NCBI GenBank assembly: GCA_029261035.1
Contig: JAJDCD010000010.1
Span: 14,612 to 78,611, forward strand
Direction: 5' to 3'
Length of the DNA: 64,000 nucleotides
DNA from: Candidatus Omnitrophota bacterium
GTDB lineage: Bacteria; Omnitrophota; Omnitrophia; Omnitrophales; JACROU01
This document shows positions 3,845-53,261 of the stretch, one piece after another (position 1 is the first letter of the stretch; every line of letters starts with the position of its first letter). The position numbers and the translations under genes are program-made. The notes under the pieces are model-generated. The model ran no database searches, had not been told where the DNA came from, and saw only the letters and a list, made by a program, of their open reading frames with translations.

Positions 3845-3852
3845 ACCTCCAT
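3845..3852 (-). promoter_or_regulatory. ribosome-binding site (GGAGG) of clpB
   Basis: Plus-strand cctcc at 3847..3851 is GGAGG on the minus strand, 8 nt upstream of the clpB ATG at 3836..3838. Confidence 0.55.
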
Positions 3853-4027
3853 AACATACAAAACTACCTATATACCTACATATATGATGCCAATATTGAT
3901 TTAAGATTCAATATATGTAAGTTATTTAATTATAATGATTTATGATATTTTTTAAAAAAGGAGAAATGATCGGTGTGTATCAAATTGTCTCAGTTGGTGC
4001 CGTTTAGATCCATGTATTTTGTATTTT

Positions 4028-4054
4028 GGGACAGTCCCCTTTGGGGACAGTCCC
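4028..4054. repeat. gggacagtccc palindromic repeat element, tandem pair (same 27-mer as 1191..1217)
   Basis: gggacagtcccctttggggacagtccc occurs identically at 1191..1217 and 4028..4054. A third related hairpin, gggacagtcccttagactgtccc, is at 53537..53559. All copies are intergenic and 4-6 nt from a stop codon or terminator. Confidence 0.8.
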
Positions 4055-4073
4055 GGGTATACCGGGTATATAT

Positions 4074-4106
4074 AAAAAAAGGGCTACCTGTTTTAAGGGT
4101 AGCCCT
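4074..4106 (-). terminator. second intrinsic terminator downstream of the giant gene, upstream of the clpB promoter
   Basis: Hairpin agggctacc / tgttttaag / ggtagccct with a 9-bp stem. It is followed on the minus strand by T7 (plus strand A7 at 4074..4080). Confidence 0.6.
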
Positions 4107-4190
4107 TGAACCCCAAAGAGAAGCTGGGGTTTAGTCCAATAAGGTGACCCAACCTTACTGGACATCTGAATAAGTTAAAATTTGAAAGTA

Positions 4191-4232
4191 AAAATTAAAA
4201 AATAGGGTGCAAGTTCAAATATTTGAACTTGC
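4191..4232 (-). terminator. intrinsic terminator of the giant gene (first of two in tandem)
   Basis: 24-nt perfect palindrome gcaagttcaaatatttgaacttgc at 4209..4232, 41 nt downstream of the giant-gene stop. It is followed on the minus strand by accctaTTTTTTaaTTTT. Confidence 0.65.
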
Positions 4233-4273
4233 TCATTAATTTTGACTTTTTCCTTTTAACTTTTAAACCTTTC

Positions 4274-5319
4274 TTATGCGGCTTGTGCGACCTGTCTTGC
4301 TGCTAGTTCTTGTGATAACAGCTTATCAAGTAACTGTCGTACAGAAGCAACGTTGAAGAAGAACCGGTCTTCTTCACGGGCTAATCCGCGAGATACAAGC
4401 TCGTTAGCTACCGCTTCACCATAGCGTGCAATTTCACGGCCTGTTCGGAGAACCACAGGTTTAACCCAATCATAGCGGTCCAGAGCCTGTTTATCGTAAA
4501 CCACGTGGTAAACTCCTTTAGCACCTGTTACTCGATCACTTAAGTCGGTTTCTTCATTTGAAACAACTGTCATTGCTTTATTTGTATATTCTGGTTGTTG
4601 TCTCAAGTCGGTCACAATTCGGTTCAAGCTTAAACCTTGATCTGTGATCAAGATTACTTGCCCTCTAACACTCTCTGGAATAGAGATAGCTACATCTTCA
4701 GGAACATTAGCTATAACGAGTTGATGATTCTGGGTTCCAGAGAAGTAATTGATAAAGGCATCATCTTCATCTGGTGTTCCAATAAATGGCAAGTAAACTC
4801 CTGTGTTCCAATCTACAACCTGAACCGAAGGTGCTGGGGAAGCTCCAGAACCTACAATCATTTTATCCAAAGCTTCATTAAATCCAGTCGAAACGAGATC
4901 TGCCGCTGCTCGAACATCGCCCAACTGTGTTTGTAATTGTGTTAAAGCAAACTGCCCTTTTAAACCTTGTATAGAATCTAAAGCAGACAACAATGCACTT
5001 TGTTGAGAATCTGTCAAAGGAGCTTTTGCTACAGGAACACCTAAACTCTCAGCTGTAATTTCTGGAACAATTTTTTCTTTAACAGGTTTTTCACCTAAAG
5101 AAGATCCATAAATATCTTTTTCTTTAAGCGTATACAATTGAGCTATGCGTAGTTTATCTGCCTTTGAAACTAAATTATAACGTTTTCTTGGTAAACCAAA
5201 ACGTTGAACTGATTCACTTCTACCTGTCTTCTCAAAAACTTTTTTCAAGTATCCCGATTTGTCTCTTTTAGTAAAATCAGAATCCGTCCATTTTTTGACA
5301 TCAATTCTTCTTTTACTGA
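4274..5319 (-). other. C-terminal globular domain (~348 aa) of unknown function after the last transmembrane cluster
   Basis: This is a non-coiled-coil, mixed-composition segment (VDWNTGVYLPFIGTPDEDDAFINYF ... VYHVVYDKQALDRYDWVKPVV). I recognise no motif in it. Confidence 0.4.
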
Positions 5320-8300
5320 TTTGAAAAACCGAAAGAATCACTGAGCCAGCACCGAACACAACATAACCCAAGACAGGAATCAACGTTAATGTTGGCATAA
5401 TTAAACTAACAGCTGCCAGGATAAGGCTGAACGAGCCTAATCCAAATAAAAGATGATACCCGTATTGCGTCATAAAGGCTTGCTGGCCTTGTCTGCGAGA
5501 GATTTCACCAAGCAATTGGATCAAATCATCGTTATAATGAACTCCTTCAAAATTTCGAAGGTACGTAATATAAAGAAGTGTTTGTTCTCTATCATTCAAT
5601 GCAAAATTATTCTTACTTCCATAATTGACAATACGTTGAACAACTTCATCTCTCATACCTGAAGTCCAAGCCCCTCTTTCCTCTTCCTGTTGTCTTAACC
5701 AGTACATAAATTCTTTCATAGCACCTTGATAACGCGCTTCTTCGTAAGATTCCCCTCTTCCAAACGAAGCCATAAACCAAGCAATTAAAGGTCCAAAAAT
5801 AAAGGAGTAAAGAATAATACCCCCAATAAAAATAAAGAGTGGGTCAATCAAACCAAGCATAACACCTGAAGCTATGATTAAACCAATATAAAGAACATTA
5901 ATCAGCTTCGCTTCACCCACTTCAAATTTATACGCATCCATCGGACTCAAACCTTTTTCCAACTGTTCTGCAACAGTCGCACTGGTAATCCACTTAAAGC
6001 CGATACCATAAAATGCTGCATGAATCGTTTCTTTAACAAAGTCAATTGAGATACGAATATTAATCAAAAGAATCGAAGTTGAAACAAACGTTTGGAATAT
6101 AGAGTCCTTCACAATTTGTTTTAAATCTCGCCCTAACTTAAACGTATTAAAGAAAAACAAGGCTCCCAATATCCACAAAAGATACGGTTTTACAAATTGA
6201 GAAAATAAATCCATCATCACCACGAGGGATTCTGCCGATTGATACTGAGATAAAAATGTATTAAATTCTGTCACCCAAACATTAAGAAAATTAATACTTT
6301 GAGAAGGGAGCGCTACATAAAAGACAAACAAAGCTCCTAAACCATAAAAAAGGTAGGATTTAAAACGATTAACATAATAATCTGGGTCTCCTAAACCTCT
6401 AAAGGTAAATTTTTCTACAATTTCATGTCTCCACCAAGTAACCCTATCGTGCTGCCCTAATCTATGTCCTATATGATACTCATTCCCTTCGTTGTCTGTA
6501 GCATAAAGACTAGACCAATTCAAAGGAACCCACCCCCACAACCCTTTACTTGGATGAACAATACTCACAGGCATCTGAGAAGACATCCCTTCCCAAATAC
6601 GTGCCATTGCAGGTTTAATAATTTGAGGCACTGCGATCATACCGGCCATAATACTTCCAAAAAGCACATACCCAATATAACGCGCTTTAGCAATCAACAA
6701 ACCTGGAATATTGGCAAACACCAAACCAAAAATCAGCCAGAGACCAAAGATTGATTCTCCCAAGAATCCATATAAAATGGTAGATAATTGAGGTGCAATT
6801 CCTCGAGGCAAATCACTCGGTTTTGCCAATCGTTCCCAAGCATCTTTAAATGTAAAAAGTCGAGGTTCTGCACGGAAAATACGGCCTAAATGTAGGGCAT
6901 GACTCATACGCCACAAAGTACCAACAAAACGATGCTCCTCAATTAATTGTGCTAAGTCACCTGTATCCCAACGAACCTTACGAGGCAATGCAAAGAAATA
7001 ACTATGCGGCAAAATCTCTAAAATAATATCTTTAAAATTAAACAGATCTATGCCTAAAATATGCATTAAGAAAGAAACATCTCCCAATTCTTCTTTTGTG
7101 AACCACTCTGACTCTGGTTTCGGTTCCCAAACAGCTCCATCATTTTGACGAGACCATAAATCTACATCTACCGGCTTCACCACACCTCGGTTAATAAAAT
7201 CATTCTCTATTGCTCTTTCTTTTAAGATTTTACGCGCTTTAGAACCATCTACTTGAGCTTCACGGAATAAACGAAATGCCATTGGAATCATGTAGTACTT
7301 ACGAATATATTCTCTCAACTGTGGGTTTCTCATATAATCAACCCAACGTTTTCTCCAAAAAATACGTCCTCCCCCACGGAAACCTTCTTGAATATCATGA
7401 CTAATAAAGTGTGCTGGAACCAACTCTTTAAAAATTACTTCTCCCATATAAAAAGGTGTGAAGACCATTTTTCCAAATGCAGGTGCTTTTGGTTCTTTTG
7501 GCGTACTTTGAATCCCTGTTTGAACCAATAACAAATGCCCTAATTGCCTCAATGCTTTCGATTCAAAACGAGAGTGGGTTGAAGTATGCGAATCTTCTTC
7601 TAATGGAGACGATTGATTATCATATGAAATTTGAGGCTGATGTACAGAAACTATATGTTTTGCCTTCATAGCAGCTATTGCATGCGCATAAACTTCTTTA
7701 GCTGCTCCAAACGTATAAGGATTCTTATTATCCCCTTGTAATTTAAATTCTATTTTATGATCAGGTTCAATAGGTGTTCCGTATTGATCTTTAATTCGCT
7801 CACCATTAAAATTAAAGTAATCCAAGTCTGGCATTTCATATTCACTCTCTTCGCCCTTAACTTTATCTAAAGTTTGAATGTCATCTGAGGAGATCAATTC
7901 TTTTTTCACAATACGAATTTGGCCCTGATCATCTACTTCAATCGTATCAAACTGAATATTTCCATCATTATCAATATGAAGCCGAGGATCATTTAAAACA
8001 TCTTTTGAATTTAACATCCACCCTTCTTCATATTGACTTCCATCCCAATAGTAAATCTTACGAAGCGTTGATTCTCCTCGTTCATTTTCAAAAGGTTTGA
8101 CATCAATGTCTTTTTTCAATAGATAACTTTTTTCACGGCCTGTTTTTCCAATATGCAATCCGGCAACATCCGCAAAAACACCTGTTCTGACAAGTTCCGC
8201 TTCTTCCTCAGTGATATCCCCACTTTTTAACATTTCATCAATAAAGCTTGGGTCTTTAAAACCAAAATAACGATCAAATGGATTTCTTCGTTTATTCACT

Positions 8301-11300
8301 CCTGTAAAATAACCTCTCACAACACGTTGAACTTTGATTCCATCGAGAGTATCTGTTGCTGTCACCCACTGATCATTTTCATCGATTAAAATCTGGCCAT
8401 GCTCTGAAGTGGTACTCGCATTCATGGAGAAGTCCGTCAATGTTCTTGCTAGAATAGGAACATCTGGGTCTTTTTGAGTCAATTGAAAATCAGGGATTAT
8501 CTTTTCTTTTCCACCCTGATCTTTTTTGAGTGTTCTAAAATCACTCACCTTTTCTAAGGTGACTATCTGATCAGGATCCGATATTAATTCAGCACCCTCA
8601 TAAGATAAAGCTCCTGTCACCTCACCAACGGTATAACCGTCTCGACTATAAACCAACAATGCTTCACGGTAATCATCCGTCACCGCAACATGACTTGTTT
8701 GATTTTGAGCAAGTATATAATTACCATCACTCGTTGCATAATCTATGGAGTCTCTAGCCACATCCTCTTTGCTCTTCAAACCTTCATAGTCCACATCTAA
8801 CTCAATAACAACTCCATCTTTGTCAAAAGTTAACTTACCGTTATTAACTTCAAAACCATCTTTTTGGTGAACCAAAATGCCCGAAACCAAATTGCCCCCT
8901 TCCATATAATAAACATTTTGATAAAACTGCTCTCCACGATCACCTTGAAGTTGGGTTACATCCACAGGACCTTTAATTAAGTAACTGTTTGCATTTGCAT
9001 TGTAGTGAACCTCAGTAGCATGTTCTTCCATAGCTGCTTTTGCAATCGCATCCGCACCTTTAATCAAATATCCTTTTTGTTTTTTGAAGACATTGGCCTC
9101 TCGCTCAATTTCATCCACAACAACAGCGGTACCTTGTTCTGCAGCTTTTAATCGGGCAGCATTCTGAATATCTTGTTTATTGGCAATGCGAACCCCTCGA
9201 ATTGGGTCTGCTTCGATATTTTCTCTAATCGTAAAAGTTCCGTCCATTTCACGCTTAATCGCACCTTGGTTACTGGCAAGACCATGAACTTTTAATATAA
9301 CTGTTTGTCCAGGCTGTATTTCATCTAAGGTAATATTTCTACTCACCCTTCTTTTTTTGGATCCTTTTTTGCTCAACCTTGAGAAAAACCCTTCTTGAGA
9401 GAGAAAAGAATATTTTCCATATTCTAAAGCTTCTCCGAAAAGTTGAATCCTTCCATAATCACTATCGATTAAATCTCCTTCAACCAAAATCTGTTTTCCA
9501 TCTTTTGTTGCCATGTCTCCACGAGAAATATCAATTTCAGGCTCTTCATAGAGAACCGCTCTTTTTTCTTTTTTCAAAGCCTTTCCATGTTTCTTTAGTG
9601 GCTGTTCCATAACCACAAAAGTTTTAGCACGTTTTACTGATTTTTTTGTTTGCCTGTTATTTTCTGTTACAGTAGCAGATCTACGAGTTAAAACACCAAA
9701 GCCAGGACGACTCATAGAAAAAACAGATTCTTCAGATTTTGCACGATAAAGAATCTCTTTCTTATTCAACTTATATTTTTTTCTAGGAATAACAACGCTA
9801 CCTGTTGCGTCTAGTAAATTTCCTTTTTCATCTAAGTAATACACTTTTTTTACAACTTCATTTGTATTTGGATCTAATCGTTTTAAGATCACTTCCTGCT
9901 CAAAAACAAGGTCTGCTGTTAATGGCATTCTTCGGCCTTGATTATCATAAACAACTTCGTCTTTACGCGTTCTGAGCGTACCATCATCATTCCACCATAC
10001 CCATTGATCTTTTCTTAATATTGGCTTAGAGCTCGATGGTTTTGAACCTGGCTCATAAACATCTCCCTTAAACACAGGGTATCTTCTTTCAATCATTTGA
10101 CCTGGGTTTTTAGGATCTTCTGCCATACCCACAATAAAACGTTCCGTTTTAACTTGCTGAACATCCCACTCTTGCTTACTATTATCTGGACGTGTGATTT
10201 CTAGCGCATTTTGCTGTTCAATATAAAAACCTTCATCGTAAGCACCAAAAAGAGCCGCATCAATATCTCGATTATCTGTTTTAATTCGTTTATCTTCTCC
10301 ATAAGCCGTATAGGTTCTTGGATGCGTAACACCATATTCTAAAAATTCAAATGCGTTCTGTAACTGCCCCCATTTCACACCAAATTTTTCCAAGTGTTCT
10401 TGAACATAAATAATACGATCAGCACCAAAACGATCTCTCAATCGCTTAATTTCTTTAATTTCTGCTTTAAGAACATTTGGCTTACTCGTTCTAGAAACAA
10501 GCAATAGTTTTAAATGATCATTCGGATCCAGGTCTTCATGATCAATTACTTTTCTATCTTTTGTTTTAGGATCATAAACCTTATAAAAAGCAAGCTGAGC
10601 TAATTTAGAAACTTTATCTACAGGAACATAAGGTTGAAACAGAATGTGAAGGTCTGAAATCAAGTCCTCTCTTGCTAAAGTTAAAGCTTCATCTGCTTCT
10701 TCTTGAATCTCTTCTATTTGAGCTTGCATATCTTCTAACGAAATAATCCTATCTTCAAATCTTGATTTGGTTTCTGTCACTTTCCTTCTTTTATCAGAAT
10801 CGATTGTTTGTCTTCTTTTGACTAACTCCAACTTCGCTGCTTCTACGTTTTTTTGCAATTGGCGCACAATATCTTCTTGCACTGCATCATCCATGTTAAT
10901 AAATCGATCTTTAACGTCAGGAATCAAACTATCTACATAATCAATCCAAAAGGCTCTTGTCTTCTCATCGTAAGTACGCAGGTTCACTGTGTTCAAGAAA
11001 CTGGTTTTACTGTGAACCATCGCACTTTGCGCTTCTGATGGAGATTGCATCAAAATAGGAGTTGCCATTGCAGCGCTCCATCTCATTGATGCTCTATTGC
11101 TCTTCAACGCATACTCATCATAATCCAGTTTTTGTTTGCGATAAAAAATATTCATCAGAGTAAACATCATAATCTGTCTAAAAGGACGGTTAATATAGAC
11201 ATAGAAAAAGGAAGTCGCCCAAACAATCATTCCAGCAGACCAATTCGCATCCATACCCACAATCATATAAAAGTAAGCAGGAGCTGTTAAAAGAATATTA

Positions 11301-14300
11301 TCCAAAAGATTTGAGAATGTGGTTACAACATCTCTTTTGGCTTCAAAATATGCTATCTCTTTCGTTTCTGTAAAATAAGCCGTTGGAATCCAAGGAATAT
11401 ATCGAATAACAGCAACAACAAACTTTAAAGCACTGAATGCCAAGAACCCAGCAACAAAGGAGGCAAAAATGGCATAGCCCCAGAAATTAAAAGCGGTCAT
11501 GTTAACCACAGCAGCAAGCATCGGTTCTAGGTGAAACAAAGTATATAAACCACCCATCAAAGGAACAATAACAAGTGGACTGAGCCAAACCAAGAAACTC
11601 TTAACATTTCCAATTTTTATGGATTTTGAAGTTGGTTCTCTTTCAGGGATTTGAGGAAGATCTTCTTCAGCCACATCACCGTGAGGTAAAGACTGACCCA
11701 CACCCAAACTAGCACCTTCCGTCAAATCCTTTTGAGTTTGAGCAACAAGTTCCGGACGTCCCAAACTAGAACCACTCCCTGTCTCAGGACCACCGGCACT
11801 CCCACTAGTTGCAGTCGACCCTGTATCATCTTTTTTCTTTTTCGTACCAAAAATTAGAAGGCTAAATAAAGCCCAAAGAGCTGCAAAAGCACCTAAAATC
11901 ATTCCCAATCCGCTCCAGAAGTTTTCTTTAATCCAACTTCTCCACTCGTCGGCTCGCGTTTCTCCTTGATCTACTGTTGGTAAACGCTTTTTAATTTCTT
12001 CCAATCCTCTTTCAGCGGCTAATTGGTCAATTTTTTCTTTTACCTGTGTTCGAATTGCTCCGTCCAAAGCATCTCTTAAGTACTCTGGAGAATAACCCAT
12101 AATTTCTCTTAAGTTTATTTTCTGATTCAAGTCTACTTGCGCTTCGTCTAGAAGAATCAACAACATTTGGTCATCTAATTTACCCTTTGTTGGTGTCACC
12201 TCTTCCTGAATCCGCTGAGCTCTATCGACTAATAAAATAAAGTTCACCACATCCAAATTACGTTTTTGAATTTGATCTAAAATCTGCCCTGCAGCTCGCT
12301 GCCTAGCAAGTATGATCGTTTCACCATCTTGAACCTGAACAAGCGTAGACATAGTTAAACCTTCTAAACGACTTGTTATAATACGAATATCTCTTTCTCT
12401 ATTCATATCCAAGACAGGAAGCTCAACTGGAGCTGTAATACTTGTTTTCAAAACCAAACCTAATCGACTGAGCAAGAATTCATTCACTTTAGATTTATTA
12501 CTTCCACTCAATGTAATCCCGAGGCCGCCGTTGCTTGTAGACGCTTCCATCACTTCGTTCACATTCTTAAGCAAACTAACCAAAATAGCAATATCCCCTG
12601 TTTGAACTTCTGCCTGCGTTCGAGATTTATCTACTTCAAGACCCGTTTCCAATAATCGATAAACCACATGATCTAAAGCATTGGTTACAACAGGGATTTG
12701 ACCTTGTTGAATCGCTTGATTTAAGAAAATTTTAGCACGCTCTTCCAAAGCCTCTTCTCGAGCTTCGGCTGTTCTACCAGGAACCGGCCCTAAATCTTTT
12801 AGGATTTCTTTTACGTATTCTTTTAAAACAAAGAAACTGCGAAACTGTTCCAAAGTCCAGCCATCATTGTCTTTTTGAGTCACATAAAAAGCAATTTGTC
12901 CCTTTTCTTTCTCTGTTAAATCACTCAATGTTCTAGGAGTCTGGCCATCAGGTACATTTCGATTTACAATTTCAAGGTAGATATTTCCAATTTGAATTCG
13001 ATCAATATAAGAAATATTAATCGCATCTCTAGGGGTAAAACCATTGGTCAATACTTGAGAGTATAAAAACCCTAATACCTTACTACCAATTTCCGCTTCT
13101 GCTTGACCCAGGTCCAACTGCTCACGAATAGTGTCAATCTCTGCTTTTCTCTCAACTGAAGTTCCTGCTGCTGCATATTCTGTATTTAATTCTCCATTTA
13201 AGTTGATCAACTCTGCTCGAATGTTAGCTTCGATTTGAGTTTGAAGCACACGGCTATCTCTTTCATTTTGCTCTTTAATTTTATACTCCGTTAACCGTTC
13301 TAAACGATTTGCTTTTTCTTGATCTCTCAGTTCTTTACTCTCTCTCAATGCTTTTCGGTAATTTTCAGCATTCTGCTCGTGCGCTGCTTCCGCTCTACCC
13401 ATACCCGTTCTGTCTCTTAAAATTCGGGCCTCAATGCGATCCAAAGACCTCTGTAACTGAGCAGAATCAATACTGCCGTCTCGTTCAAACATTTGTCGTG
13501 CTAAAAAGAATTCTAAAGTGCGTCGAATACCGCCCACTTCTTCAATAATCGTTTCTTGTTCTCTACGCACTTGCATATTGTAGTAAGCATGATCTCCACG
13601 CTCTTCAACCAAATTTGAATCTGTCACTTTCTTTGCATACTCAAATAAGTAATGTTGATAGTATTCTGCACGAGTAACAGGGGTATCACTTCCAGGAATA
13701 ACAAAGTACTCTGATTTATCTAGAGCACCCCCAAAAGTATTAAATTCTGTTGTTAATTTTCTATAAATCACACCATAGAGATTTACAGTGTCATTAATAT
13801 CTCTTAAGGTAATATCTCCTTTAAGACGAGATTCAAAATTTCCACTCATCTGAAAATCTTGAACACCTTTTTGCCAATAAAACTCAGACCAACGAGACCA
13901 GTCCCCTTCATAGAAATCATTAATCTGTCCTCCAATTTGAGCAAAATCCAAAAAGTAAACACGGCTACTATTGGCCCGTAAATTTCTGTTGGTTAATTCT
14001 TGAATCTTACGCACCGCATTAAAGTAAACTTGAATTTTCTTTCGAACATAGTCTCTCTTGATATTTAATTCTTGCTGATAGCGTTGATTTTCATCTCCGG
14101 TATCGATTCCAACAGCTCTTTCGATGATATTGGCTCTATGCCTAAAAAAGTCTCTTTCAAAATCAATCACTAAACCGGAGGTAGCACCGTCTGTCAATCT
14201 TGGAATATCCAGTTCTCTGACATTGCCAAAACCCTCAACTTGAAGCAATTGCTGAACCACATCTCCTTCAAGACGTTTTATTTGTGCTTCCATTTCCATA

Positions 14301-17300
14301 TAGAACGCCACTTGATCTCGTGTGAAACGACTACGCTCAATGGCTAACGCTCTCGCATCCGTAAGCGCCGGCGTTGTTTCTGTAGACTCAATCGCTGGCA
14401 ACCCTTGAAACGCCCTATTTTTATTGATCTCTTCTAAAATAGATTGTTTTAATGCAGCAACGGCTGTAGGGTTATTGTCATAACGCTTCATATATTCATC
14501 TGCTAAATCTCTAATACGGTCACTGTTGACCATACGATATCTCAAGAACCCAAGCTTACCATCATCTAAACGCTCTCCACGATACAAAGACATATGAAGC
14601 ACTTGAAAATAACCATCTAAAGCTAACCGTTCCATAAAGTCCGTAAAAGCAACCTCCCCGCGATCATACTGAGCAAGTCGACGAGCTCTTTCTTCAGGAG
14701 AAATATTCAAACCGTCCAACTGATTTACGTAAAGCGTTCTTCGTTCTTGTTTTGCCGTTTCTGATAAATCCATCCCCATCATAAACCGTTGACCAAAGTA
14801 AGTAGCTCGACTGTCATCCATTGGATTTTGAGTTTCTCTCAATATACCAATCATAATACGTTCTTTTTGTATCGCTTCATTCAAAGCAAATAAATGGGAT
14901 CTAAACTCTAAACTACGTCCTTCGGATTCAATCGTTTCTAAGATAATGTTACGCATTGTCTCTACGGATCGCAAACGAGCTTCTCTATCCGTTATTTCTG
15001 CACCCATTCGTCTAGTCACTGCTTGATTCATATTATCGATACGCCCCAAGAAACGTTCTAAGGTTACTAATTTTAAACGTCGTCCAATTTGACCTTGACC
15101 AAAAATAACACTCGTAAGCGCTTGTTTTACCTGAGCTCCCAATTGAACAAACTCCGTTGCTTGAAGGCGCAGCGCTGCTAATTGCTGAGTCTCCACATCC
15201 GTACGAGCAGCCCCTTTACGATCTAAGCGAACAATTTCTCTAATAAAAGCTGTTCTTACTGCTTTAACTTCATCGGAATCCAAAAATGCTGTAATTGCAG
15301 CTTTGGTTGCGGTCTCTTTTTGAGTTGCATTCAAACGATCATTATGATCAATCACAGCAAGACTTCTAAGTAAATGATCTTTCTTTAAATTTAATAGACG
15401 AATAGGCTGTCTCATAGCTCTATCGGAAGTAAATTGAATCTCTAGAGGTTGAGATAATCGTATTGCTGCTTGTATGGGTTGAAATGCTTTATCTTGCCCT
15501 TCGAAATCTAAGTTTCTAAAACCCATCAACGTTTCATGGAAACGGCTTTCGGTAATTCCAAAACTACGCTGTAAACGATCATACTGCTCAATATGAGATT
15601 CTTTTAATTGTGCAATATTTCTAAATGTGGTTCTGATATTACGAGGCAAATCTACTTCCACCATCTGAGTTAAACGGTTCTCAGCATCCGTAATTTCTGC
15701 TGTCAAACGTGCAATCACAGCTTGGTCTGTATTTGGCTTATCATTTTCAGCTTTCATTTCACGTTTTTTCACTTCAACCAATAAAGCCTGATCGCGAATC
15801 GTTCTCAAGAAATCACGAATCCAAGATGCTGCTTCTCCTTGCGCCACATCCAGAAAACGCCATTCTTCCACTGCAATACGAGAAACAAGGTGACGTGTCC
15901 TCATTAACCGATTCACTTCTTCTTTAGCCGCATTGTAATCTGAAAAACTAATACCATCTTTAGTATATAACTGAGAAACTTTACCCAAAATGTCTCTCAT
16001 ACGATAATCTCGAGCAAATGTTGTTGCATGTCCTTCAAAGTATCTGTTTAAAACATCTTGTGGTAATTGCAACCCTAACTGCGTTAATGTTTGATTAATG
16101 ATCACTCGTTTCGCATCTCGATCTCGATCTAATTCACGACGGAAATCTTGAGTATCCGTATCCACTTTTACATATTGATTCATTAAATCATTATCTGTGA
16201 TATAAAGTGCCATTCGGATATAATTTTCTAAGTCGCTCAATTGAACTTTTCCATCACTTACTTCTTTCATCATACCAAAAGCAAGAGAATCAACAATAGA
16301 GCTTCGGTATTCCAAATTAAATGCGCGACGATAATCATCCATAACCGTATCCACATTAATCATACCTTCAGCCCCCAACTGTCTTAAATCCCTTTCTAAC
16401 GAAAGTCTCTTTACAGGGCCTGCAAAATTATTCCACTCATTGTCTCGAGCAGCAATAAGAGCAGTAGCAACCGCAGCACCTTCAGCATCAAAAGCTCGAT
16501 TAATACTTTGTTTCACTTGGAAAAACCGCGTAACTGCCGCGCCAAGTTTAGAAACATCTGTCGTTAATTTACCATCGTCCTGAGCTTGAAGGAAAGCTCG
16601 GGTGAGACTTGAGATGGCACTTTCATAAAAAATCTTTCCGTATTCTGTAGAAAGTTTTGTATTTAAAGCTGAACTCATCTGAGTTAAATCCCTTAACCAT
16701 GCATTTCTTTGCGCAAGTGTAATCGAACCTTCCCGATGGAGTTGAATCAAACGTCTTTGTTTAAATAAATTAAGTTCATTGTTAAAACGAGCTTGATTGT
16801 CCAGAATATAACGATCCATTGGAATGTTAGCTTTAAAATGCCTTAAGATAGCCATTCTCATTTGAAGATGTCGTCTAAAATCAGTTCTCAACTGTTCCGG
16901 ATCAGAACTACGAACACTCGACTCTAAGAAATCTTCAGAAATACTTACGATACGACCCCAGACATCTTCTTCTTGCAACGGACGATACACTTCTGTTCTA
17001 CCATCCACAACACGAGTGGCTCTCGTTAACGTTCCTCCTTGAGGAATAACCCCTAATAATATAAAGTACTGCTCTAATTCTCCTTTTACATTACCGGTGT
17101 AACTATCATCAATAAGAAAACGGATTTGCTCTGCTCTGTGTCTGGATTTGACTAACCCAGCAACAATACGGTCAAAAGTGTATGAGGTTAAGAATCCACT
17201 ATGATTCGGATTTCCAATATAATCAAAAGTGAATGTAGCATCATTAGGGTCTGCTAGATTACGTAAACGGAATAACCTTTCAGCATCTGCTTTATTGTTT

Positions 17301-41300: not shown

Positions 41301-44300
41301 ATCAAAGAACGCAACTCTTCATTTTGTTCTAAAATTCTACGATCATACACCTTGGTATCTTCAGCTTTGCTTTTAAATAGGTCTGCTGTAATTCCTTCCC
41401 TTGAAACTCGAGAAGATTCCGATAACTTTTTAAGTTGTGTTGTAGGGTCTGATACAAAGGCATGCATTAAATCTTTAGCATAACGTCTTTTGTCATTCAA
41501 AGCATCCATATATCTTTCATAACTTGAATAGGTGCTTGGAGAATTAAAAAACTGGTGAGAATTTCCTCGAGTTAACTGTTCTTGCCTTGCCCCTTCAACG
41601 ATACCAGGGGTTTCTATAGGTGTTTTTTGAGGCAATGTTTCCCGAGCTTGCTTTAATCTTTTTTCGTAAATTGCTTTTTGCTCGTCAAAAAGTTCTTTTG
41701 CTTTTCTTTTAGAATCTTCTACCTCTTCATAAACAGAATCTCGTTTTTTCTGAACTGCTGAACGAGCTTCTTGTAAGCTTTTCTTTAAATCAACCATAGG
41801 TTCTGACAATACTTCAAGAAAACTGAGAACACTTTCTACGAAAGAGTCCGAAATCACAACTGGAGGAGAACGTTCTGAAGCGGACTCAACAATCCCTTCA
41901 AGTCTCTCAATTAACCCTGGTATCACATCGGTAGAAACTTCATCCGCATTACGAATAGCTGCAGCCAACTCACTTAAAATGCCGTCCAACTGCTGCACAC
42001 TTTGTGTCTCTAAAGCTTCTTTTCGAGAAAGATCTATCCCTTGCTCGGTTTCATTTATATTAAGTACAATATTCTTCTGATCTTGATGAATTCGATCAAT
42101 TTGATCTAAAAACAACATAAGCTCTTCTGCTTTTTTTAATGCCGGCTGATACTCTTCTTTTATAAGCTCATCAATTCCCTGAATCGCACCACTCAAAGCG
42201 TCTTCAAATTTACGATCAACCACACCGTTAATAGCTTGAATTGTTTGCAACTTTCCTTCAGCCTTAGCTTGATCCCCCTTATATTCAAAATCCAAAATAT
42301 CTTTTGCACGGGTCCAATTCTTACGAGCTTCCTCTAAATCTTCTATAGAACTCACTTCTAAAATACTTGTCATTAAACGGGTCGCTTCCCCAATTTTTTT
42401 CCTAGCTTCAAAAACAGCGTCATTTCCTTCTTGAGCCAATCTCTCTACCTCTACTTCTCGCACCTGTCTTTCTATAAGCATTTGATTAAAATCAGCCATT
42501 CGGTCCAAAAGATTCTTGAAACGGCCTTGAACTGCAAACGCCCCTTCAACCATCTCACGCACTTCACTAATCACATCTCCATAGCTATCTAACTCTGACT
42601 GGGTCACATTTTGTCTAATTTGGATTAAATTTTCTTCAACTTCTCGGGAAGAAACTAACATTTGTTCTTTTAGCTGAATATGTTGAAGTCTTGCAGCGCT
42701 TAAACTAAGTTGAGGATTTTGAATCATTCTCTCAAGATCCCCAACAACAATTTCAAAATGAGAAGGTTCTTCATCTTCTTCCAAATCTTGCTTAGGATCT
42801 AATTTTTCTTCAGCAATTGCAGCAATACGACTAACATAAACTTCAATACTTCCTTTAATTTCAGCAACATGTTGTTTTCTTGTGATTAAGGTCAACTTAT
42901 CATCAATCGCGTCATCTAAAAGATCTACTTCCTGTTTTAACTCTTTAATTGCATTATATTTACTCTGTAAATCCAACTTCAATACTTGAGCGGTATCTAA
43001 TTTCTCTGTTTCTGCTTCGAATGCTGCCAAAATTCCTTCTAATAAACGAAAACGTTCATTCGCTTCCTTAAAATGGCTTCTTAGCTCTTTAATATCCTCT
43101 GTTTGCTTAGCTTCATCACTAATTGCTCTCGCTTCTTCTGTTAATGCGCGCGCTTCTACAACTTTAGCTTCTAAACGCTCAACAATTTCTGCTTGATCCT
43201 TACCCTCTGTTTTATTAATAGCAATCGCACTCATAAGTTCCTTATACACAGTGCTACTTTTCTCGGATAAAGAAGTTAACGTTTTTTGCAATTCAGCAAT
43301 ACGATCTTGATCTACACCATCAATCAAACCCGCAGCATCCAAAATAATGTCTAATTCGTTCATTTCTATCGTTACAATACTTAAATCTCTTTTTGCATCC
43401 GTCTCAATTGCATCCAAAGATGGAATATCTTTTTTTCGTTTTGCTCGACTCAACATCCGTTCTAACTCATCAATTTGAAGCTCCAAACGGCCTTGATGCG
43501 TTTCAAAATTAGCCTCCAAGGCTTCTAATCCTAAATTTTTCTTTTCTTCCAAGACTTTACGTCTTGCTTTAACTTGACCTTCCATCTCTTTAAAAGCTTG
43601 GTCTATACTTTCAACCTTTTTTTCCAGCCCTTCAATCTTGGTTGACATTAACGCTCTTACTTGTTCAACATCATCCCCTGCTTCATCTCTAAAGTTTTCA
43701 GGAATACTATCACTATCTGTCAACCTCTCCGCAATCTCTCGTAAATCATCTAATTCTGCACGAACACCTTCTAACTCTTCTTGTTTCTCAATCAAGACTT
43801 CTTCCATTTCTTTCAAACGCCCCAAAGAACGGGCTTGAGCAATTGCCTCTCCAATACCTTGAACTTGACCCTCCAACTCTGCTAAAACCAAATTCAAATC
43901 TCCAAACATTGAATCTAAAGCTGCTGAACGCTCAGCAACAAAGAGACGAGCCTCCTCTTTTTTTCTAGCTTGCTCAACTTTATCTGCTGCTTCAGTAATT
44001 GTTTCTTGCAATGATGGGATGCGACCTTTCTGAACCCGATAAGCTTCCATCACTTCTTCTACAGCCGAAACAACCTCTCCTTTTGCTGTCTTAAAAGCAG
44101 AAATAACGTCATTCAAAATAGGCTCAAGTTGATCTGAAGGAATTGTCTTTATAACTGAAATCTGTTGAGTGTATTTATCTTCTGTGTAATTCGCATCTAC
44201 ACTTTCCAACCCCTCTCTTAAAGGCGCTACTGTAGCATCATTAAAGTTTATTGCAATTTCAAGGCGCGATGCTTGCGCGGCTAAATCATCCGTCTGAGTT

Positions 44301-47300
44301 ACAGCATCCAACTTTTCTTTCAGAACGTTCGTTTTAACATCAAGTTCTTTAGAAGCTGCAACAATTCCCTCTTGCTTAAGTTCTAAATCTAAAATTACTT
44401 TGGAGCGCAACAAACCTAATCCCGTTTTAATAATATTTCCTTTAAGCTCTTGAATCTGCTTTCCTAAGCCCCGCAATTTTTCAATTACAGAAACAAATTC
44501 AGAACTTTCTGTAATTTGAGTTGATAAAGAAGGGTCTGCAGACAAAGCTTTTTCAAAAAGCTTTTTCTCTTGTACATTTTTATCCAAACGAACAAAGCTG
44601 TCATAAGCAACCCGCAAATAGCCTAAACGATCTTTAGGCTTAATATTGTTCTCACTCACAATATCTAAAGCTTGAGTCACAGCTTTATAACTTGCATTCA
44701 TTTCTTTTAAAATGCTTCCTATCTCACTCGATGCCTTATTTACTTTTTCTACTTCATCAGATATTCTTTCCGCAAGAAAGTCTGCATCTAACTCTTCTAT
44801 TACTTTATTCACATCTGAATTTCTACTATCAATCTCACCCATTGCTGCTACTGCTCCAGCTTTTAAATCAGAAACTTCCGTACGAAACCCCATGAAAAGA
44901 GCGTCAATTTGATCTCTGGCTAAGTCTATTGCTTCAGGATAAGAAGCCCCCGCTTCACTCCACTTAAGATCAACCTGATCCACACCGGCCAAAACACCGT
45001 TTGCCAAATCTAAAAAGTCATCCAGTTCTGTTTTAGCCTTTTTCCTCGTTTCTAAATCGTTATTCGCATCCTCAACTTCTATCAACCGGCCTTCAATAGG
45101 GGTCAAATGTGCATTTTCAAAATCAAACAAGCTAATAAAAGGTTCTCTTTTCTTCAAACTCGTAATCTGTTCTTGAGCCTCTTGAACCAAAACATCTTTT
45201 TTAGCTAACTGAATACTTCTTTGAACATCTTCAACCTCTTGATATTTTACTTGAATCAACGCTTCTACTTCATCGCGAGCTTCAGCAATTAACCTATTAA
45301 TCGGCTCTTCTATTTGAGCAACAACATCATTAGCCGCAACCGTTGTTGATAACACAGTAATTTCATATGCAATCTGATCTAAATCCAATTCTCTTAGCTC
45401 TGTTTCTAGCGCTTCTAAAGCTCCAATTGCTTGCTGAATTGAAGGCTCATTAGCTGCAACAACTACATCTGTAACTACAATACCTTCAAGTTGAGTGATC
45501 ATCTCTGCTTTTTGAGCAGCAATCGCTTCTTTTGCCAAATCTAGTTGAGCATCAACAACCCTTTGAGTTTCTTTTTGTTTTCTTTCTTCGGTTTCTATTT
45601 GTCTTAAAAGATCTCCATGTTGTTCCGCCAATTTTAATTGTGTGAATTTTCCGGCAAGCTTTGCTTGAGCTTTTAAATTTATATCTGCGGGTTCAGTGTC
45701 TAACAAAATAGAATCAAACTTAGGGTCTAAAACTAAACCGGTTCCAATATAACCTTGAACAGGTTGAAATTGAGTTGTTGTCAAACTATCAAAAGACTCT
45801 CTTACAATCCCAATATCCGCTCCACCCAGAAGCTCCTGCTCCAAACGGTTCATTGTCTGACTAAGAGTATCTAATACAGTAAGTTGAGTTGCTAAGGTTG
45901 AAGACACCGCTTCTTCGAATTCACGCATCAGCGAATCTGAATCCTGAATTTCAGGTATTTCATTTTCATCCAATAGAGCCCCATTTAAATCCACATAGTA
46001 CCGCACCAAATCTCCAGCAACCTCCTCTTCCAACACTCTAAGAGCCCCTAAAATTGCAGAACCAGCAACAACACTCTCTTCATCATAAACCCAAGCATCT
46101 CTAGATTTAGGCTCTAAAACATCCATCAGAGCACCCACAGCGGCCACCTCTCCTGATTCTCCAATTTGTATTGCTGTATCTCGAGCCGCCTCCCAATACT
46201 CTGCACCCCATTGAACTTCCAACTGATCAATTAATTGCGCCGTTTCATCCGAAAGAACTTCTTCAGGTTCTTGCGTTGCAGCATCTCGCTCTCTTTCCAA
46301 ACGCTTTTTAGAGGCTTCCGTTGCCGCTCTCACAGTGCCGAGTTTTACCATATTCGCTCTTAACAAATCTTTCGCGGTATCCAAATCACCTTCCCAACGA
46401 ACCAGCTTTTTCAATTCTCCAACACCTATATCCACAGCGTCATCAACAACCATCTCAATAGCAGTGTCAATACCCATATTAGGCTCATAAGAAATCTGAC
46501 CTAATGTAGGAATTAAATTATTTTTAGCTAATCTACCTGCCTCCACTACAACATCGTATCGCTTTGCTCTTTGAGTTATCTCATCATCTTGAGCTTGAGC
46601 TAGTTTTCCTAAATCAACCATACGTCTTGTGGCTTGACCCAACATAAAATTATAAACTTTAGAAACAAGCCCTTCGAGATTAAAATCCCCTTGATTCTCC
46701 TGTTTCATTTGTCTCGTTATAGCCTGAAGAGCCTCTTCGTCAATCTGGTACTTCCCTCTTACCACGTACGTTCTAGCTTCGACAATCATTGCGTTAGCCT
46801 TACTTAACGATTCGTCAGTAGCCCTTTCAATTTGTGTGTCAATGAGATCTAAATCCAAACGATTAAAAGCACTCACCCCATCCAATTCAGGACGTTCTCC
46901 AATAGGTCCCTCCCAAGCAAATTGCGCATCAAACTCTTCTCTCAATTTTCGAATCCATGTCAGAGCATTTCGGGCAACTTTTAATTTTTGCATTCTCTTT
47001 TCAAATTCGGCTTGAACGGCTTTTTGAACGCCAGGATTATTCTCAACAATACCTTCGTAAGAAGTAAAAAATGTTTCCGCCTCTTCCATTAACGCTTCAG
47101 CCCGAACCAAAGATTCCATATCAGAAATTAATTCTTCCTCATAAGGAATCTCTTTATGTAATGCAAAACCCTCTTTAATTTCTCTAATTAGTTTCGCAAG
47201 ATCTTTGCCCGAATCCTTCAAATCTTTTACTTCTTTTACTTTTTGTTCAATCCTTTCAATACCTTCATCCAATTTACTACTAGCTCGATATTGGGCCAAA

Positions 47301-50300
47301 CTGCGATTGGCCGCACCCACTAACTCTTGGTAGGTATTTGCTAGCTCAGATCCATCGGCCACTTGCAAAGGAATTAATTGATCCATATCCATTTTAATTG
47401 CAGAAAGTTCAATACTCGCCTCATAATCATCTTTTTCTCCAGAAAGCATTGCTTGATAAACCTCTCGAGAACGCTCAATAATTGCGTCAATGTTGTTTTC
47501 TATTTTTTCTAGCTGAACTTGCAAGAAGTCCTTCACCGTTCCCTTAAGAATTCCCTCAATCACCAATCTTTGATTTTGTATCTCATTAAAACGAGGCTCT
47601 ATATTTAATTTTGATTTAATTTTATTATGATATGTAACAATGTCACGAGCACCACTTTCGCCACTTTTTGATTTAGCAAGAACAGCAATAAGCATTTCAC
47701 CCGCTTTTTTGGAACTAGGAGCATCATCGGTTAACCAATCATCATTACCGCCACCACCAGCAACCAAATCATACAACTCTCCTGTAGCCGCTTCGTATTG
47801 GTTCACCCCTATTTCTAATGCAATATTATAAACGTCGTCCCATTTTTTTTGCTCCCAAGACTCCTTCAACGCCTCTGTTAAAGCAACACCCTCTCGATCC
47901 ACCAAACCTCGACCATAGCGAACGGCCATAGCCGCTAATGGCTGATCTGCTTTCAGCTTCAGCGTTGTAAGCAAAAGAATAAGTTGCTCTTTTTCTTCGC
48001 TCAATTTTTTTCTCTGCTCCGCTTCTCGTCGCGCTCGCTCTTCTTGAGCTCTTTGAGCCGCTACTTGCTCCGCCATTTTTTTTGCAATACCTTTTCGCTT
48101 CGTAGCTTCTGCTAGTTCAGCACCCTCTTTTTGTCGCGCTTTTTCTTCCACAATAGCTTCTGGAATTGGAATGGTTAATGTGCGAGTTACACCAATAGAA
48201 GAGGTCACTTCTTCTTTCCATTCGATATTACCCATAACTTGACGCATTTTCATCGTACTCATTCCCAAACCACCTGATTTGTGGCGGTTAATTAACTGTA
48301 GGAAAATATCTTTTTCTCGAGCTGCCATTTTCTGCCTCTGCACATCTTGAGGAATTGGCAATTGCAACGCATCAATTTTGTCTGCATACGTAAATTGAGA
48401 ACTTGGCTCAAACAGTCGAATGACCACTTGATTATCCTGAAGCTCCACAGCAACTCTTACATCTTGGTCTGCTGAAAAAGGAAGCTTTCTTTTTTCGTAA
48501 AAAGTTTTGGTTAACGTATTTTCAATATAATTCTGAACCAACTCCATAAGATCGGTGAGCAAATTCTCTTGAAACTCCGCAAGCTCCGTCGTCAAATCTT
48601 CTTGAATAGAAACATCGGATGCCTGAACCACCGCTTGAAGGGATGCATAAGCAACATCTAACACTTTACGCTCAAGAACTCCCGGTTCTCCTCCATCCCC
48701 TTTAGCAATCGCTTTCATTGCTGAATTATAAATTTCACGTACCGTATGGTGATGCTGTTCTGGTTCTAATCCAGAATAATCGGAGGCCGCTATATTTGAT
48801 TTCCCTGTACGCGCATAAAAATTCACTCTTTTATCTTTAGCAATACTAGGCACCGAAGAAGCAATACCTACAGCGATTGGGAATTCGTCTAAAGGATACG
48901 CTTCATCTCGAGCAATTCTCAACTTAGCTTCTGCATTTGTATAAACACCAATAAAACTTGTTATCTCTGCACCAATGCTTTTTCGTAATTCAGAAATCTC
49001 TCTCTTTTGATCCACAAACAACTGCCCGTAAGATTTTTCATCAAATAGTTGTTTTGCTGCTTCAGGAACACTAAGACTTCGTGTCATAGCCGCTAAGTTT
49101 TTACGCGCTCTCAATAAGCCATCCCAAAGAATTTCTAATGTGGCAATTTTTTCTGATAAATCCGTTTCCTTCATCGTTTCTTTTAAAGTCGTTTTTGCAG
49201 ACGCAACAACTTCACGAACTTCTTTTGTTAATTTTCTCTTAATAATATTCGCACGAACCATAATTACATTCTGAGGAATGGTCTTAGCAGCCGCTTGATA
49301 AATCACTTCTAACTCTCTAACACGATTATTATGAGCACGTATATCCTCAGCAAAAACAGCTTCAAAGGCTTCTATTTGTTCTACAACTTTTGGATGTTGC
49401 GCAAAGGATGCTAAGTCTTGTGGAATGCTTATTTGATCAGAAATTCTAAGTTTTACTAATTCTTCCCTTTCCACTTTTGCTTCCTTAAAATCTTGAATGT
49501 TTTCTTGAACTTGCTCCAAAGCTAAATTATCTTCAGTTAAACGAACCACACTATCTTCAAAGCGAACCAACAAATCTTGACTTGTTATTTTACTTAAACG
49601 TTCTGCAGTTCTATTAGCTTCGGTTTTAATATGTTCTAACAACCTTTGAACTTCAGGAGAAATCGGAGCTTTTGGAACCTGAGGAGGTGTTGCAGGTTTC
49701 AGGGTTAATTGTTTAATGCGAGCATCTGTTTTTTCTTGAATTTGAGGCAAAAGATCTTTTGTTACCATCTTTGCTAAAGATAAAGAGTATTGAGAAAATC
49801 CAGAAATAATTTTACGAGCATGAGTTTCAGCAGCTTGTTGCGTTAGCTTATCATTTGCAGATCTTAACTTATCCTTCAAAGTACTAAGAGCGCCTACCTG
49901 AACTCGATAATTCTTATTATCTTTAGAAGTTAAACGATCCAATTCTTGCGAAAACTGCGCAAGCCCATCTCTAAGCCCTTCGACCTTCGAAGCATCTAAT
50001 GAAGCTAAGTACTGATCAAACATTTGAAGGAATAGTACTGCAATTCTTTTTTGCCAAGCGGCCTTCTTCTCGTTATCTTCTCTTTTAGCTTTCAGAGAAA
50101 ATTCACCCGTCCAACTCGCTTCGTGAACAAGCTGATTAAATATATGAGCTGCAACTCTTGTTAAAGCCTCATTAACTATCTCTTTCTGATTATCACCCAA
50201 ACTAGCCGCCATCGCCAAAACTTCTTCTTGCATTGGGCCATCAAACATCTGTTCCCAAACCAACAAGGAAGCAGCAACTCCAATAGCAAAATTTTCTGAA

Positions 50301-52870: not shown

Positions 52871-53261
52871 AAACTAGGTCGACCTTACCTCGTTAATTTT
52901 ATTTTTTGCTGCTTAAGAAAATTTAAGTATTGTTCGATAATATTAAGTTCTATCGAGTTATTTCCAAAAAAACACTTCCTTTTAAACAATTACGTTTAAA
53001 AACAAATAAATTTTTCTAAATACGCCCTTTTCATTTAATCTTTTAAAAAAGTTTTTCTTAATTCATGCAACTCTTTCGAAAACAAAATGAAAATTTATAC
53101 TACATTCTTTTTTGTAAAACAACAGTCGGCAATACTTACTTATTTCTCTTAAAGGAATTATAACATACTTTTTTTAACTTTGTAAAAACTGGAGTAAATA
53201 TATCGGAATTTCTAGCAATACCTTTAATATCCCTTAAAAATAAGCCAAATAAGCTAAATTA

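Follow-up and report, generated by a model that had tools for sequence, protein, structure and literature searches.

A 16,198-residue giant protein of an Omnitrophota bacterium with predicted beta-1,2-glucan-related modules, including a permuted SGL-clan barrel

The window analysed here is a stretch of 64,000 nucleotides (nt) from a Candidatus Omnitrophota bacterium (assembly GCA_029261035.1, contig JAJDCD010000010.1, positions 14,612 to 78,611), most of which is occupied by one giant open reading frame (ORF) on the minus strand (4274..52870). It starts with ATG, encodes 16,198 amino acids (aa) and contains a single stop codon, which is terminal. The genes clpB and a methyltransferase gene lie downstream of it, and a second long ORF lies upstream. 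All coordinates below refer to the window, and all features of the giant are on the minus strand. An earlier note on this DNA had described a single 48.6-kb ORF that cannot have arisen by chance and that encodes a non-repetitive protein, and these statements hold. Across 4274-52870, the other five frames contain 852-1,573 in-frame stops (~1,000 per alternative frame, compared with zero here), and the chance of finding no stop in 16,198 random codons of the same composition is ~1e-470. The GC content at the three codon positions of the giant gene (~0.54/0.35/0.27; GC1>GC2>GC3) is constant across all 3-kb slices, as is the purine excess at the first position, and this signal is the same as that of the adjoining clpB and of the upstream ORF. 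The number of Ns in the window is zero. These results confirm that the giant ORF is a genuine intact gene.

The product has a predicted mass of 1.83 MDa and an isoelectric point of 5.2. No DNA tandem repeats were found inside the gene by Tandem Repeats Finder (TRF), and the whole protein searched against itself (BLASTP, E<1e-3) returned the identity match alone, while a permissive tiled self-search detected only two internal duplications, both short and local. The first is a tandem pair of ~126 aa (aa 4849-5027 vs 4975-5141; 37490-38326; 28% identity). The second (aa 14629-14692 vs 14915-14980; 7931-8986; 34% identity) consists of ~65-aa copies ~290 aa apart within a Gly-rich acidic stretch, which resembles the "DGN"-rich regions preceding the membrane module in two other large proteins, P0134 and P0136. 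Domain searches also detected none of the families of nonribosomal peptide synthetases and polyketide synthases (NRPS/PKS) or of immunoglobulin (Ig), cadherin and RTX adhesins, as the earlier note had said. The protein contains 1 cysteine in 16,198 aa, located in the signal peptide. Such avoidance of cysteine is extreme, and it is shared by the upstream ORF (0 in 3,472 aa) and by most related long ORFs (0-3 per ~4,000 aa).

By consensus matching, the gene has its own promoter-like and terminator-like signals. A promoter-like site (TTTACA-18-TATAAT with TG; 53157..53186), which matches the sigma-70 consensus at 11 of 12 positions, is located ~290 nt upstream of the ATG, a Shine-Dalgarno-like GAGGTAAGG (~52883-52891; consensus match only) precedes the start, and a terminator-like hairpin with a 10-bp stem (4209..4232) follows 42 nt past the stop codon.

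Homology, composition and hydropathy outline the giant as a mosaic of predicted modules, comprising a conserved N-terminal module (N-module), acidic helices, clusters of transmembrane (TM) helices, a permuted SGL-clan barrel, a half-GT84 module and an HAD-like C-terminus. The SGL-clan (alpha/alpha)6 domain is found in two parts, using node numbers of a hidden Markov model (HMM) built for this domain: its C-terminal third is placed first (aa 8348-8480; 27431..27829; nodes 280-408 of 414, PF10091) and its N-terminal two-thirds are placed second (aa 8494-8784; 26519..27391; nodes 6-266, PF11329/DUF3131). Pfam matches PF10091 at aa 8349-8468 (model 108-218 of 221; 1e-16) and PF11329 at aa 8510-8604 (model 2-91; 2e-10), and this check by domain HMMs, which had been proposed earlier, supports a globular SGL-clan domain. 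Sequence matches in PDB (E 8e-19 to 1e-2) include 8wy1, 8rf0, 8rf9, 8xuj and GH144 enzymes; 8wy1 is the cyclization domain of TiCGS (GH189), 8rf0 and 8rf9 are Cgs, and 8xuj is EeSGL1 (GH192). For aa 7650-9149, five distant Cgs proteins were the sole relatives.

The order of the two parts was compared with canonical proteins in several ways. By BLAST, aa 8499-8761 of the giant correspond to residues 842-1078 of a Cgs-like protein (P0002), and aa 8323-8473 correspond to its residues 1082-1232; contiguous segments of this protein are thus matched in reversed order, indicating that the barrel parts are swapped. When the query was rearranged to the canonical order, it became colinear with 8wy1 and 8xuj, with an E-value of 2.5e-24 vs 8.4e-19 for the native order (phmmer), and alignment by MAFFT with similarly rearranged Cgs segments gave 24-31% identity and 47 invariant columns. 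The custom HMM was built from canonical SGL domains, including the stand-alone lipoprotein-type genes of two metagenome loci (L142 and L163), and was run with filters off on aa 7900-9200. It found exactly two matches, 3e-28 (nodes 280-408) and then 1.6e-57 (nodes 6-266). Tandem SGL domains were considered instead of a permutation, and this filter-free search found no second N- or C-part. On these matches, the swapped order is what a circular permutation would leave and tandem copies would not, and we conclude that the domain is an SGL-clan barrel with non-canonical connectivity. If true, the permutation would be the first in clan GH-S known to us, as we know of no earlier one. Circular permutation of the barrel is not mentioned in two SGL papers (PMC12102758, PMC10834661), within a literature survey that was not exhaustive.

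The putative active site was mapped by alignment rather than by structure (TiCGS numbering is the 8wy1 chain index +1003). E8688 aligns with the acid/base E1356 of TiCGS, which is the general-acid position of the clan (CpSGL E211, TfSGL E262), and the Glu of the ASE motif with which it is aligned is invariant across four homologues of Cgs. E8753 aligns with TiCGS E1400 and is conserved. At the position of the TiCGS nucleophile E1442 (WGISES) the giant has V8354 (WGLSVS), and H1536/H1537 of TiCGS (AHHQGM) are replaced by L and D in LSLDQGM, the same motif as in EeSGL1, an inverting glucanase. Moreover, the conserved D8611 of the VDNG motif aligns with EeSGL1 D148/D149, the position of the proposed general base in GH192 (PMC12102758). 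From these residues, the permuted barrel is less likely to be a cyclase than either an inverting glucanase or a domain that binds glucan. The AlphaFold model of the SGL region has a mean predicted local distance difference test (pLDDT) of 56.8 and is confident only at residues ~200-370; in a Foldseek search with it, the top 14 matches are all SGL-clan or Cgs structures, at low template-modelling scores (TM-scores) of 0.30-0.38.

The second recognisable module of enzymatic type, a half-GT84 membrane module that includes TM cluster 3, lies near the C-terminus (5228..7642) and was defined by a 15-sequence profile and by motifs. An exhaustive HMMER search with aa 15000-16198 retrieved 15 proteins, and the profile of the 15-sequence alignment matches Cgs (8rf9/8rf0) in PDB at E 8.4e-10. 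The Cgs segment aligned with this profile is 678-782 of 8rf0. In the GT84 part of Cgs, the Y694 loop is autoglycosylated (IF1-like loop), D739 is the catalytic base and R773 belongs to an RW motif; if the chain positions of 8rf0 equal the native numbering, the aligned segment holds all of these. The alignment pairs FxGKG, SHDxxEG and RWxxGD, and continues colinearly, although weakly, into the TM helices. In the giant, the motifs are HQPQISY (15077), AFGKMVF (15131), SHDIQEG (15157) and RWDTGD (15300), so that the catalytic-base (SHD) and RW motifs followed by TM helices are present. The half of GT84 that binds uridine diphosphate (UDP; D527/D624) was not detected in the giant by an HMM from five Cgs proteins with filters off, and the GH94 phosphorylase (PF06165, PF17167), which is present in the Cgs matches, is absent in Pfam searches of the giant.

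The membrane module is followed by a conserved alpha/beta domain at the C-terminus (aa 15931-16198; 4277..5080), recognised by alignment. Its structure model suggests a Rossmannoid fold, and the domain is a candidate HAD-like one. In this AlphaFold model the mean pLDDT is 52.1 and only residues ~950-1198 are usable. A Lys/Arg-rich stretch lies between the last TM helix and this domain, from which the domain is probably cytoplasmic. The idea that it represents the missing UDP-binding half of GT84 was rejected (hhalign probability 0.1%). Apart from PF10091 and PF11329, Pfam at E<=1 in 1,000-aa tiles gave only noise, and NCBIfam gave nothing in any part of the giant.

At the other end, aa 1-37 (52760..52870) form a Sec-type signal-peptide-like N-terminus with KYKKTIK, a hydrophobic core and a VLA|Q site; n-, h- and c-regions are present, and by hydropathy the hydrophobic segment covers aa 13-31. 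It is followed by the conserved N-module (aa 60-1072; 49655..52693), whose core spans aa ~60-560. In the giant, its motifs are IHIQDAH (85-91), NVEGS (117-121) and TGGFHT (481-486), and the family motifs across a 42-sequence alignment are IHIQDAHANYEAQ, NVEGS and TGGFHT. Nine residues are invariant in this alignment (D89, H91, N93, Q97, E119, E172, E356, R457 and H485), and this set looks like an active site. A metagenome scan with an alignment of the giant and P0137, a protein of 2,211 aa, detected 84 loci carrying the N-module, in three settings: stand-alone secreted proteins of ~480-620 aa, proteins of ~1,000-1,700 aa, and the head of ORFs of >3,800-4,100 aa that continue past the fetched DNA. 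The stand-alone homologues likewise begin with signal or lipoprotein peptides. The N-module is thus a widespread unannotated secreted family (84 metagenome loci, L085-L164 among them). No match to it exists in Pfam, NCBIfam or PDB, and the 42-sequence profile finds no PDB member. Membership in the Tiki/TraB/ChaN superfamily is not supported statistically: two N-module members match the same part of PF04187 weakly (E 0.14 and 0.023), and HHalign of the N-module with E. coli YbaP gives a probability of 0.1% and pairs only GGFHT with GALHL.

Stand-alone SGL-type genes of canonical order are located upstream of long N-module ORFs at three independent metagenome loci (L142:1590-3839, L163:1-1464 and L093:2-625), and the first of them encodes a lipoprotein-like signal and an extra N-terminal domain of ~280 aa. 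SGL-type genes beside N-module ORFs are the gene-neighbourhood counterpart of the fusion in the giant.

Between the N-module and the first TM cluster, the giant contains an acidic, Cys-free, helix-prone and fast-evolving region (aa ~800-7690; 29801..50473), recognised by composition, propensity and homology searches. Its net charge is -421 and D+E account for 19.2%; the residues E, K, Q, L, R and A are abundant (together 39-47% per 500 aa), and aromatics are few. The C-terminal half of the giant is near-neutral in charge and of mixed helix propensity. The earlier statement that helical segments dominate the protein therefore stands for the N-terminal half (clearly helix-biased at aa ~800-7600) and not for the C-terminal half. 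The same note had raised the possibility of a continuous coiled coil over aa 1100-7690, which did not survive. Using a home-made score of a/d positions (not COILS or MARCOIL), calibrated on tropomyosin and on the shuffled giant, 9.9% of the residues of the giant reach a heptad score of at least 9, compared with 92% in tropomyosin and 0.7% in the shuffled sequence. The best heptad segments (n=26) are 28-64 aa each, and by this score no uninterrupted heptad periodicity over hundreds of residues was found. In aa 1100-7690 there are 129 Pro, at a median spacing of 38.5; Pro and Gly together number 429, with a median spacing of 10 and a longest free run of 95 aa, and Gly makes up 3.6-6.4% of each 500-aa bin of the helix-prone region. 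By themselves, the Pro/Gly statistics exclude a continuous coiled coil. The data fit many short predicted helices with occasional short coiled-coil stretches, and not one 6,600-residue rod.

TM segments were predicted from Kyte-Doolittle hydropathy only, which gave ~18-20 helices. They form three multi-helix clusters with globular domains between them, in line with the earlier description. Cluster 1 (aa 7699-7935; 29066..29776) has ~6 helices, cluster 2 (aa 13651-13873; 11252..11920) has 3-4 helices with KKKK right after the first, and cluster 3 (aa ~15368-15848) has ~8-9 helices. The long stretch between the barrel and cluster 2 (aa 8785-13650; 11921..26518) is near-neutral and of mixed propensity, and composition and domain searches gave no assignable domain. 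A match to OEP/TolC at aa 10892-11049 (E 1.6e-4) scored exactly at the cut-off, was lost on tiling and was taken as helical noise.

The relatives of the giant share pieces of it. Besides the N-module alignment, P0137 matches both ends of the giant: aa 6-733 at 34.5% identity (E 1e-123), plus the last 164 aa. P0130 (4,224 aa) matches a portion of the SGL domain as well as the C-terminal domain, and ten other proteins share the membrane module (~aa 15,280-15,880). BLAST mapping located further pieces in P0134 and P0136: aa 14114-14500 and 14818-15170 (7361..10531) are common to the giant and the large P0134, and aa 13102-13617 are common to the giant and P0136 (6,091 aa). No Pfam domains were found in the relatives examined (Pfam-dark). 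With an HMM of the C-terminal domain, no match was found among all ORFs of 80 N-module loci, and P0137 alone is known to have both ends. Most of the giant is without recognisable homologues: no relative was found for aa 2500-5499 among 5.8 billion proteins, or for aa 11199-16198 in 185,579 genomes. Two of the smaller relatives, P0126 (1,269 aa) and P0129 (750 aa), overlap near-identically end to start; from this overlap they look like parts of a single larger homologue, separated where a contig or a gene call ends, and several "small" relatives may be pieces of giants.

The closest locus, L085, is on a 2.17-Mb metagenome contig of 39.1% GC. Its ORF is 42.8% identical to the giant over aa 1-1072, and no similarity was found in the helix-prone body beyond this point. 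The ORF upstream of the giant (53566..63984, minus strand), which is no shorter than 3,472 aa and lacks both Cys and Pfam matches, has no in-frame stop from its first ATG to the window edge, which probably cuts it. A homologue of it is encoded at L085:2-7372 (42.5% identity over the last 456 aa; Cys-free, at least 2,456 aa). Judging from these alignments, the pair of giant genes is syntenic between the window and L085, and the helical body is hypervariable while the head and the neighbourhood are conserved. The matches of P0137 to both ends of the ORF, together with the synteny of its 5' side with an independent 2.17-Mb contig, argue against a chimeric join. The upstream ORF was also considered as a paralogue of the giant, and no significant similarity was detected.

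On the other side, clpB (TIGR03346; 1226-3838, minus strand) lies 435 nt downstream of the giant. The closest non-self ClpBs are 65-68% identical, and the named ones belong to Omnitrophota/Omnitrophica, save single Elusimicrobiota and Eisenbacteria sequences lower down, and by this one marker the window groups with Omnitrophota; a genome scan limited to exact peptide patterns gave ClpBs of 52-60% identity from many phyla and was uninformative on placement. One contig among the closest ClpB relatives encodes an ATP/ADP translocase, which Seymour et al. 2023 (PMC10066038) report only in Omnitrophia and Aquiviventia. HSP20 genes, not giants, adjoin clpB in these relatives, and the adjacency of clpB and the giant is not conserved and is probably incidental. 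The clpB in the window lacks the HSP20 genes that precede it in two related Omnitrophota contigs. Further downstream, a divergently oriented gene (474-1175, plus strand) encodes a class-I S-adenosylmethionine (SAM) methyltransferase of 233 aa, which resembles PRK06202 at E 1e-37, short of the family cut-off, and shows no apparent connection with the giant. A GC-rich palindrome, AGGCCCGGGCCT, occurs in 4 copies (397-440 and 53373-53476), while 0 are expected by chance. The copies form two pairs, ~30 and ~90 nt apart; in this window, whose GC content is 39%, they are confined to two intergenic regions, one between the giant ORFs and the other upstream of the methyltransferase gene. The palindrome may be a repetitive extragenic palindromic (REP)-like element or a regulator site.

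Taken together, we lean, by a modest margin over doubt, towards an envelope-anchored giant that handles beta-1,2-glucan during host contact, a function that we infer from its predicted modules. The recognisable parts point to beta-1,2-glucan handling at the envelope, not to a micrometre-long coiled-coil fibre. In the proposed mechanism, the signal peptide would export the N-terminal ~7,700 aa, i.e. the N-module and the acidic region, and the giant would remain attached to the inner membrane. A cytoplasmic location is proposed for the soluble GT84-like portion and for the C-terminal domain, based on the precedent of Cgs and on flanks rich in Lys/Arg. Outside, the permuted barrel would bind or hydrolyse beta-1,2-glucan by an inverting mechanism, and the half-GT84/TM module would hold, thread or conduct the glucan chain and would not polymerise it alone. 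The acidic helical mass would be a bulky, fast-evolving coat or spacer of short helices for host or prey contact, a role modelled on what has been proposed for V. archaeovorus and other Omnitrophota giants.

Several points weigh against this interpretation. The topology comes from hydropathy and charge counts only, and the distribution of Lys/Arg around the first helix of cluster 1 is not clearly outside-to-inside. Both structure models are poor, as are the TM-scores to SGL structures. An HMM of GT84 from Cgs alone has no match in the giant, and the link to GT84 comes via the family profile alone. An inward-facing barrel is also conceivable, since the cyclase domain of Cgs lies in the cytoplasm. 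No genes of a type II secretion system (T2SS), of pili or of carbohydrate-active enzymes (CAZymes) were found in the window, where the neighbours are clpB, the methyltransferase gene and a giant ORF, and this weakens the analogy with predatory giant loci. The interpretation also presupposes that the gene is expressed and that Omnitrophota or their hosts produce beta-1,2-glucan.

A more far-reaching version of envelope-anchored glucan handling, which we regard as rather unlikely, is an undescribed envelope system, in which the permuted barrel and the half-GT84 module would thread, capture or cleave beta-1,2-glucan across the membrane and the hypervariable acidic coat would serve contact. The glucan could, for example, be the periplasmic glucans of a Gram-negative host. 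The membrane module, which is present in ten or more further large Pfam-dark proteins, would be part of this system.

The main rival is a role in the cell's own envelope, which is possible but clearly less probable than a role in host contact. It describes a housekeeping machine that makes, trims or retains the cell's own periplasmic beta-1,2-glucan and never leaves the inner membrane and periplasm, or the cytoplasmic face, without any host; the giant is likened to Cgs and the OPG enzymes, and the helical region would be a periplasmic scaffold. The relation of both recognisable enzymatic modules to parts of Cgs, an inner-membrane maker of periplasmic glucan, agrees with this, as do the predicted TM helices that tie the giant to the inner membrane and the lack of flanking secretion or pilus genes. 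However, with GH94 and the UDP-binding part of GT84 missing, the giant is no self-sufficient synthase, and a helical region without similarity to L085 past aa 1072 evolves too fast for a conserved scaffold. The SGL-type lipoproteins with an extra N-terminal domain encoded at related loci suggest extracytoplasmic degradation instead.

Another reading, improbable as a full account, takes the giant as a polyprotein that is translated once and then cut into independent proteins, with the N-module acting or being released as a hydrolase. It is compatible both with host-contact glucan handling and with the own-envelope role. The N-module, SGL domain, membrane module and C-terminal domain each occur alone or recombined in other proteins, the invariant His/Asp/Glu/Arg set of the N-module is typical of a catalytic site, and others have noted peptidase domains at the N-terminus that might process giants. 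However, no peptidase family was detected in the giant, the Tiki/TraB/ChaN lead is insignificant, and no cleavage sites are known.

A single coiled coil of ~1 micrometre over aa ~1100-7690, forming a cell-sized fibre or ruler, is highly improbable: the composition and the excess of heptad-like residues over the shuffled sequence agree with it, but their distance from tropomyosin, the short best segments and the density of Pro and Gly do not. Least credible of all is an artefact, i.e. a chimeric assembly or a decaying pseudogene still open by chance, since the metagenome-type assembly and the absence of the giant sequence itself from the protein collections searched are outweighed by uniform composition and codon-position signal over 48.6 kb, the lack of stops, the lack of repeats to mislead an assembler, the co-occurrence of N- and C-terminal modules in P0137, the synteny kept in L085 and a source contig 207 kb long.

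Giant ORFs are a hallmark of Omnitrophota, and most of them are "dark", with roles guessed from few domains. In this giant, the only recognisable modules of catalytic type both come from the world of beta-1,2-glucan synthases and glucanases; together with the SGL-type lipoprotein genes beside the N-module, this provides a specific and assayable substrate hypothesis. The giant also shows how such a protein is constructed, as both ends are conserved modules, also found in proteins of 500-6,000 aa, and the part between them has lost all recognisable similarity among syntenic relatives. With ~450 aa, the permuted barrel offers a compact target for expression and structural studies.

Compared with known systems, the giant is close to what has been described for its phylum. 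In published surveys, 77 of 116 genomes of Velamenicoccia and 20 of 23 of Omnitrophia carry ORFs of >20 kb, with few domains and poor conservation (PMC10066038), and giants reaching 85,804 aa, each of them with TM regions, were reported by West-Roberts et al. 2023 (bioRxiv 10.1101/2023.11.21.568195) and divided into the types "Archaeovorin" and "Dockerin", for which adhesion and cell-wall digestion were proposed. Nielsen & Lui 2026 (bioRxiv 10.64898/2026.06.07.730766) list 5,761 proteins of at least 10 kaa (thousand aa), and 94% of complete Omnitrophota genomes carry at least one, so that the earlier remark that proteins above 10,000 aa are extremely rare does not apply in this phylum. In the same source, 39% of giants combine a signal peptide (SP) with TM helices, of which there are 22 on average (median 16). 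Singletons make up 80% of the sequence clusters, and for 137 of 916 giants no domain match was obtained. By these statistics, a 16-kaa SP+TM orphan is typical of the phylum and no outlier.

Like the other SP+TM giants, ours has a single ORF of >10,000 aa, a signal peptide and roughly 20 TM helices, and it shares with Omnitrophota giants the few Pfam domains, the unique sequence, the carbohydrate-active content and a second giant ORF adjoining. At 16 kaa, it differs from them in being at the small end of the size range, and no T2SS, pilus or GH2 genes, as found at reported giant loci, lie within the 64-kb window. Unlike Archaeovorins, it lacks SecA-DEAD, C39/S8 peptidase, NUDIX, methyltransferase and GT1 domains (Pfam E<=1, 1,000-aa tiles), and unlike the Dockerin type it has no dockerin (PF00404), no TSP3 (PF18884) and no repeats. 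Cgs-derived modules and a permuted barrel were not found in the sections consulted of the Omnitrophota giant papers (Seymour 2023, West-Roberts 2023, Nielsen & Lui 2026), nor was any report of a permuted SGL domain or a half-GT84 module found.

With Cgs, the giant shares the multi-TM inner-membrane type, a homologous SGL-type (alpha/alpha)6 domain and the segment homologous to the IF1-like loop, SHD catalytic-base and RW motif of GT84, extending weakly into the TM helices. Unlike Cgs, it has neither a UDP-binding GT84 half nor a GH94 phosphorylase, its module order is reversed with the two modules ~6,300 aa apart, its barrel is circularly permuted with the GH189 nucleophile gone, and the protein is ~5.7x longer. 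Homology to the SGL-clan families GH144, GH162 and GH192-194 (CpSGL 5gzh/5gzk, EeSGL1 8xuj; PMC12102758) extends across the whole barrel, with the general-acid Glu (E8688), the VDNG Asp and LSLDQGM as in EeSGL1, and these enzymes are the top fold-search matches. However, the two barrel parts are swapped relative to every solved member of the clan and to the stand-alone relatives at L142 and L163, and the domain, whose activity is predicted only, sits inside a 16-kaa membrane protein. Unlike the GH189 transglycosylase (TiCGS 8wy1; PMC10834661), it has neither the nucleophile Glu nor the His pair. Repeat adhesins (Ig, cadherin, RTX), the Chlorobium chlorochromatii giants and NRPS/PKS resemble it in size class, and the cell-cell contact roles proposed for adhesins parallel the contact role proposed here, but the giant is without repeats and without adhesin, RTX, condensation, ketosynthase (KS), acyltransferase (AT) or carrier domains, and it is anchored by multiple membrane passes. 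In summary, the giant can be placed in an already described class, the giant envelope proteins of Omnitrophota, but in neither of its named subtypes, and what it adds is the beta-1,2-glucan theme and the defined terminal modules, by which the picture of the class is refined, not changed.

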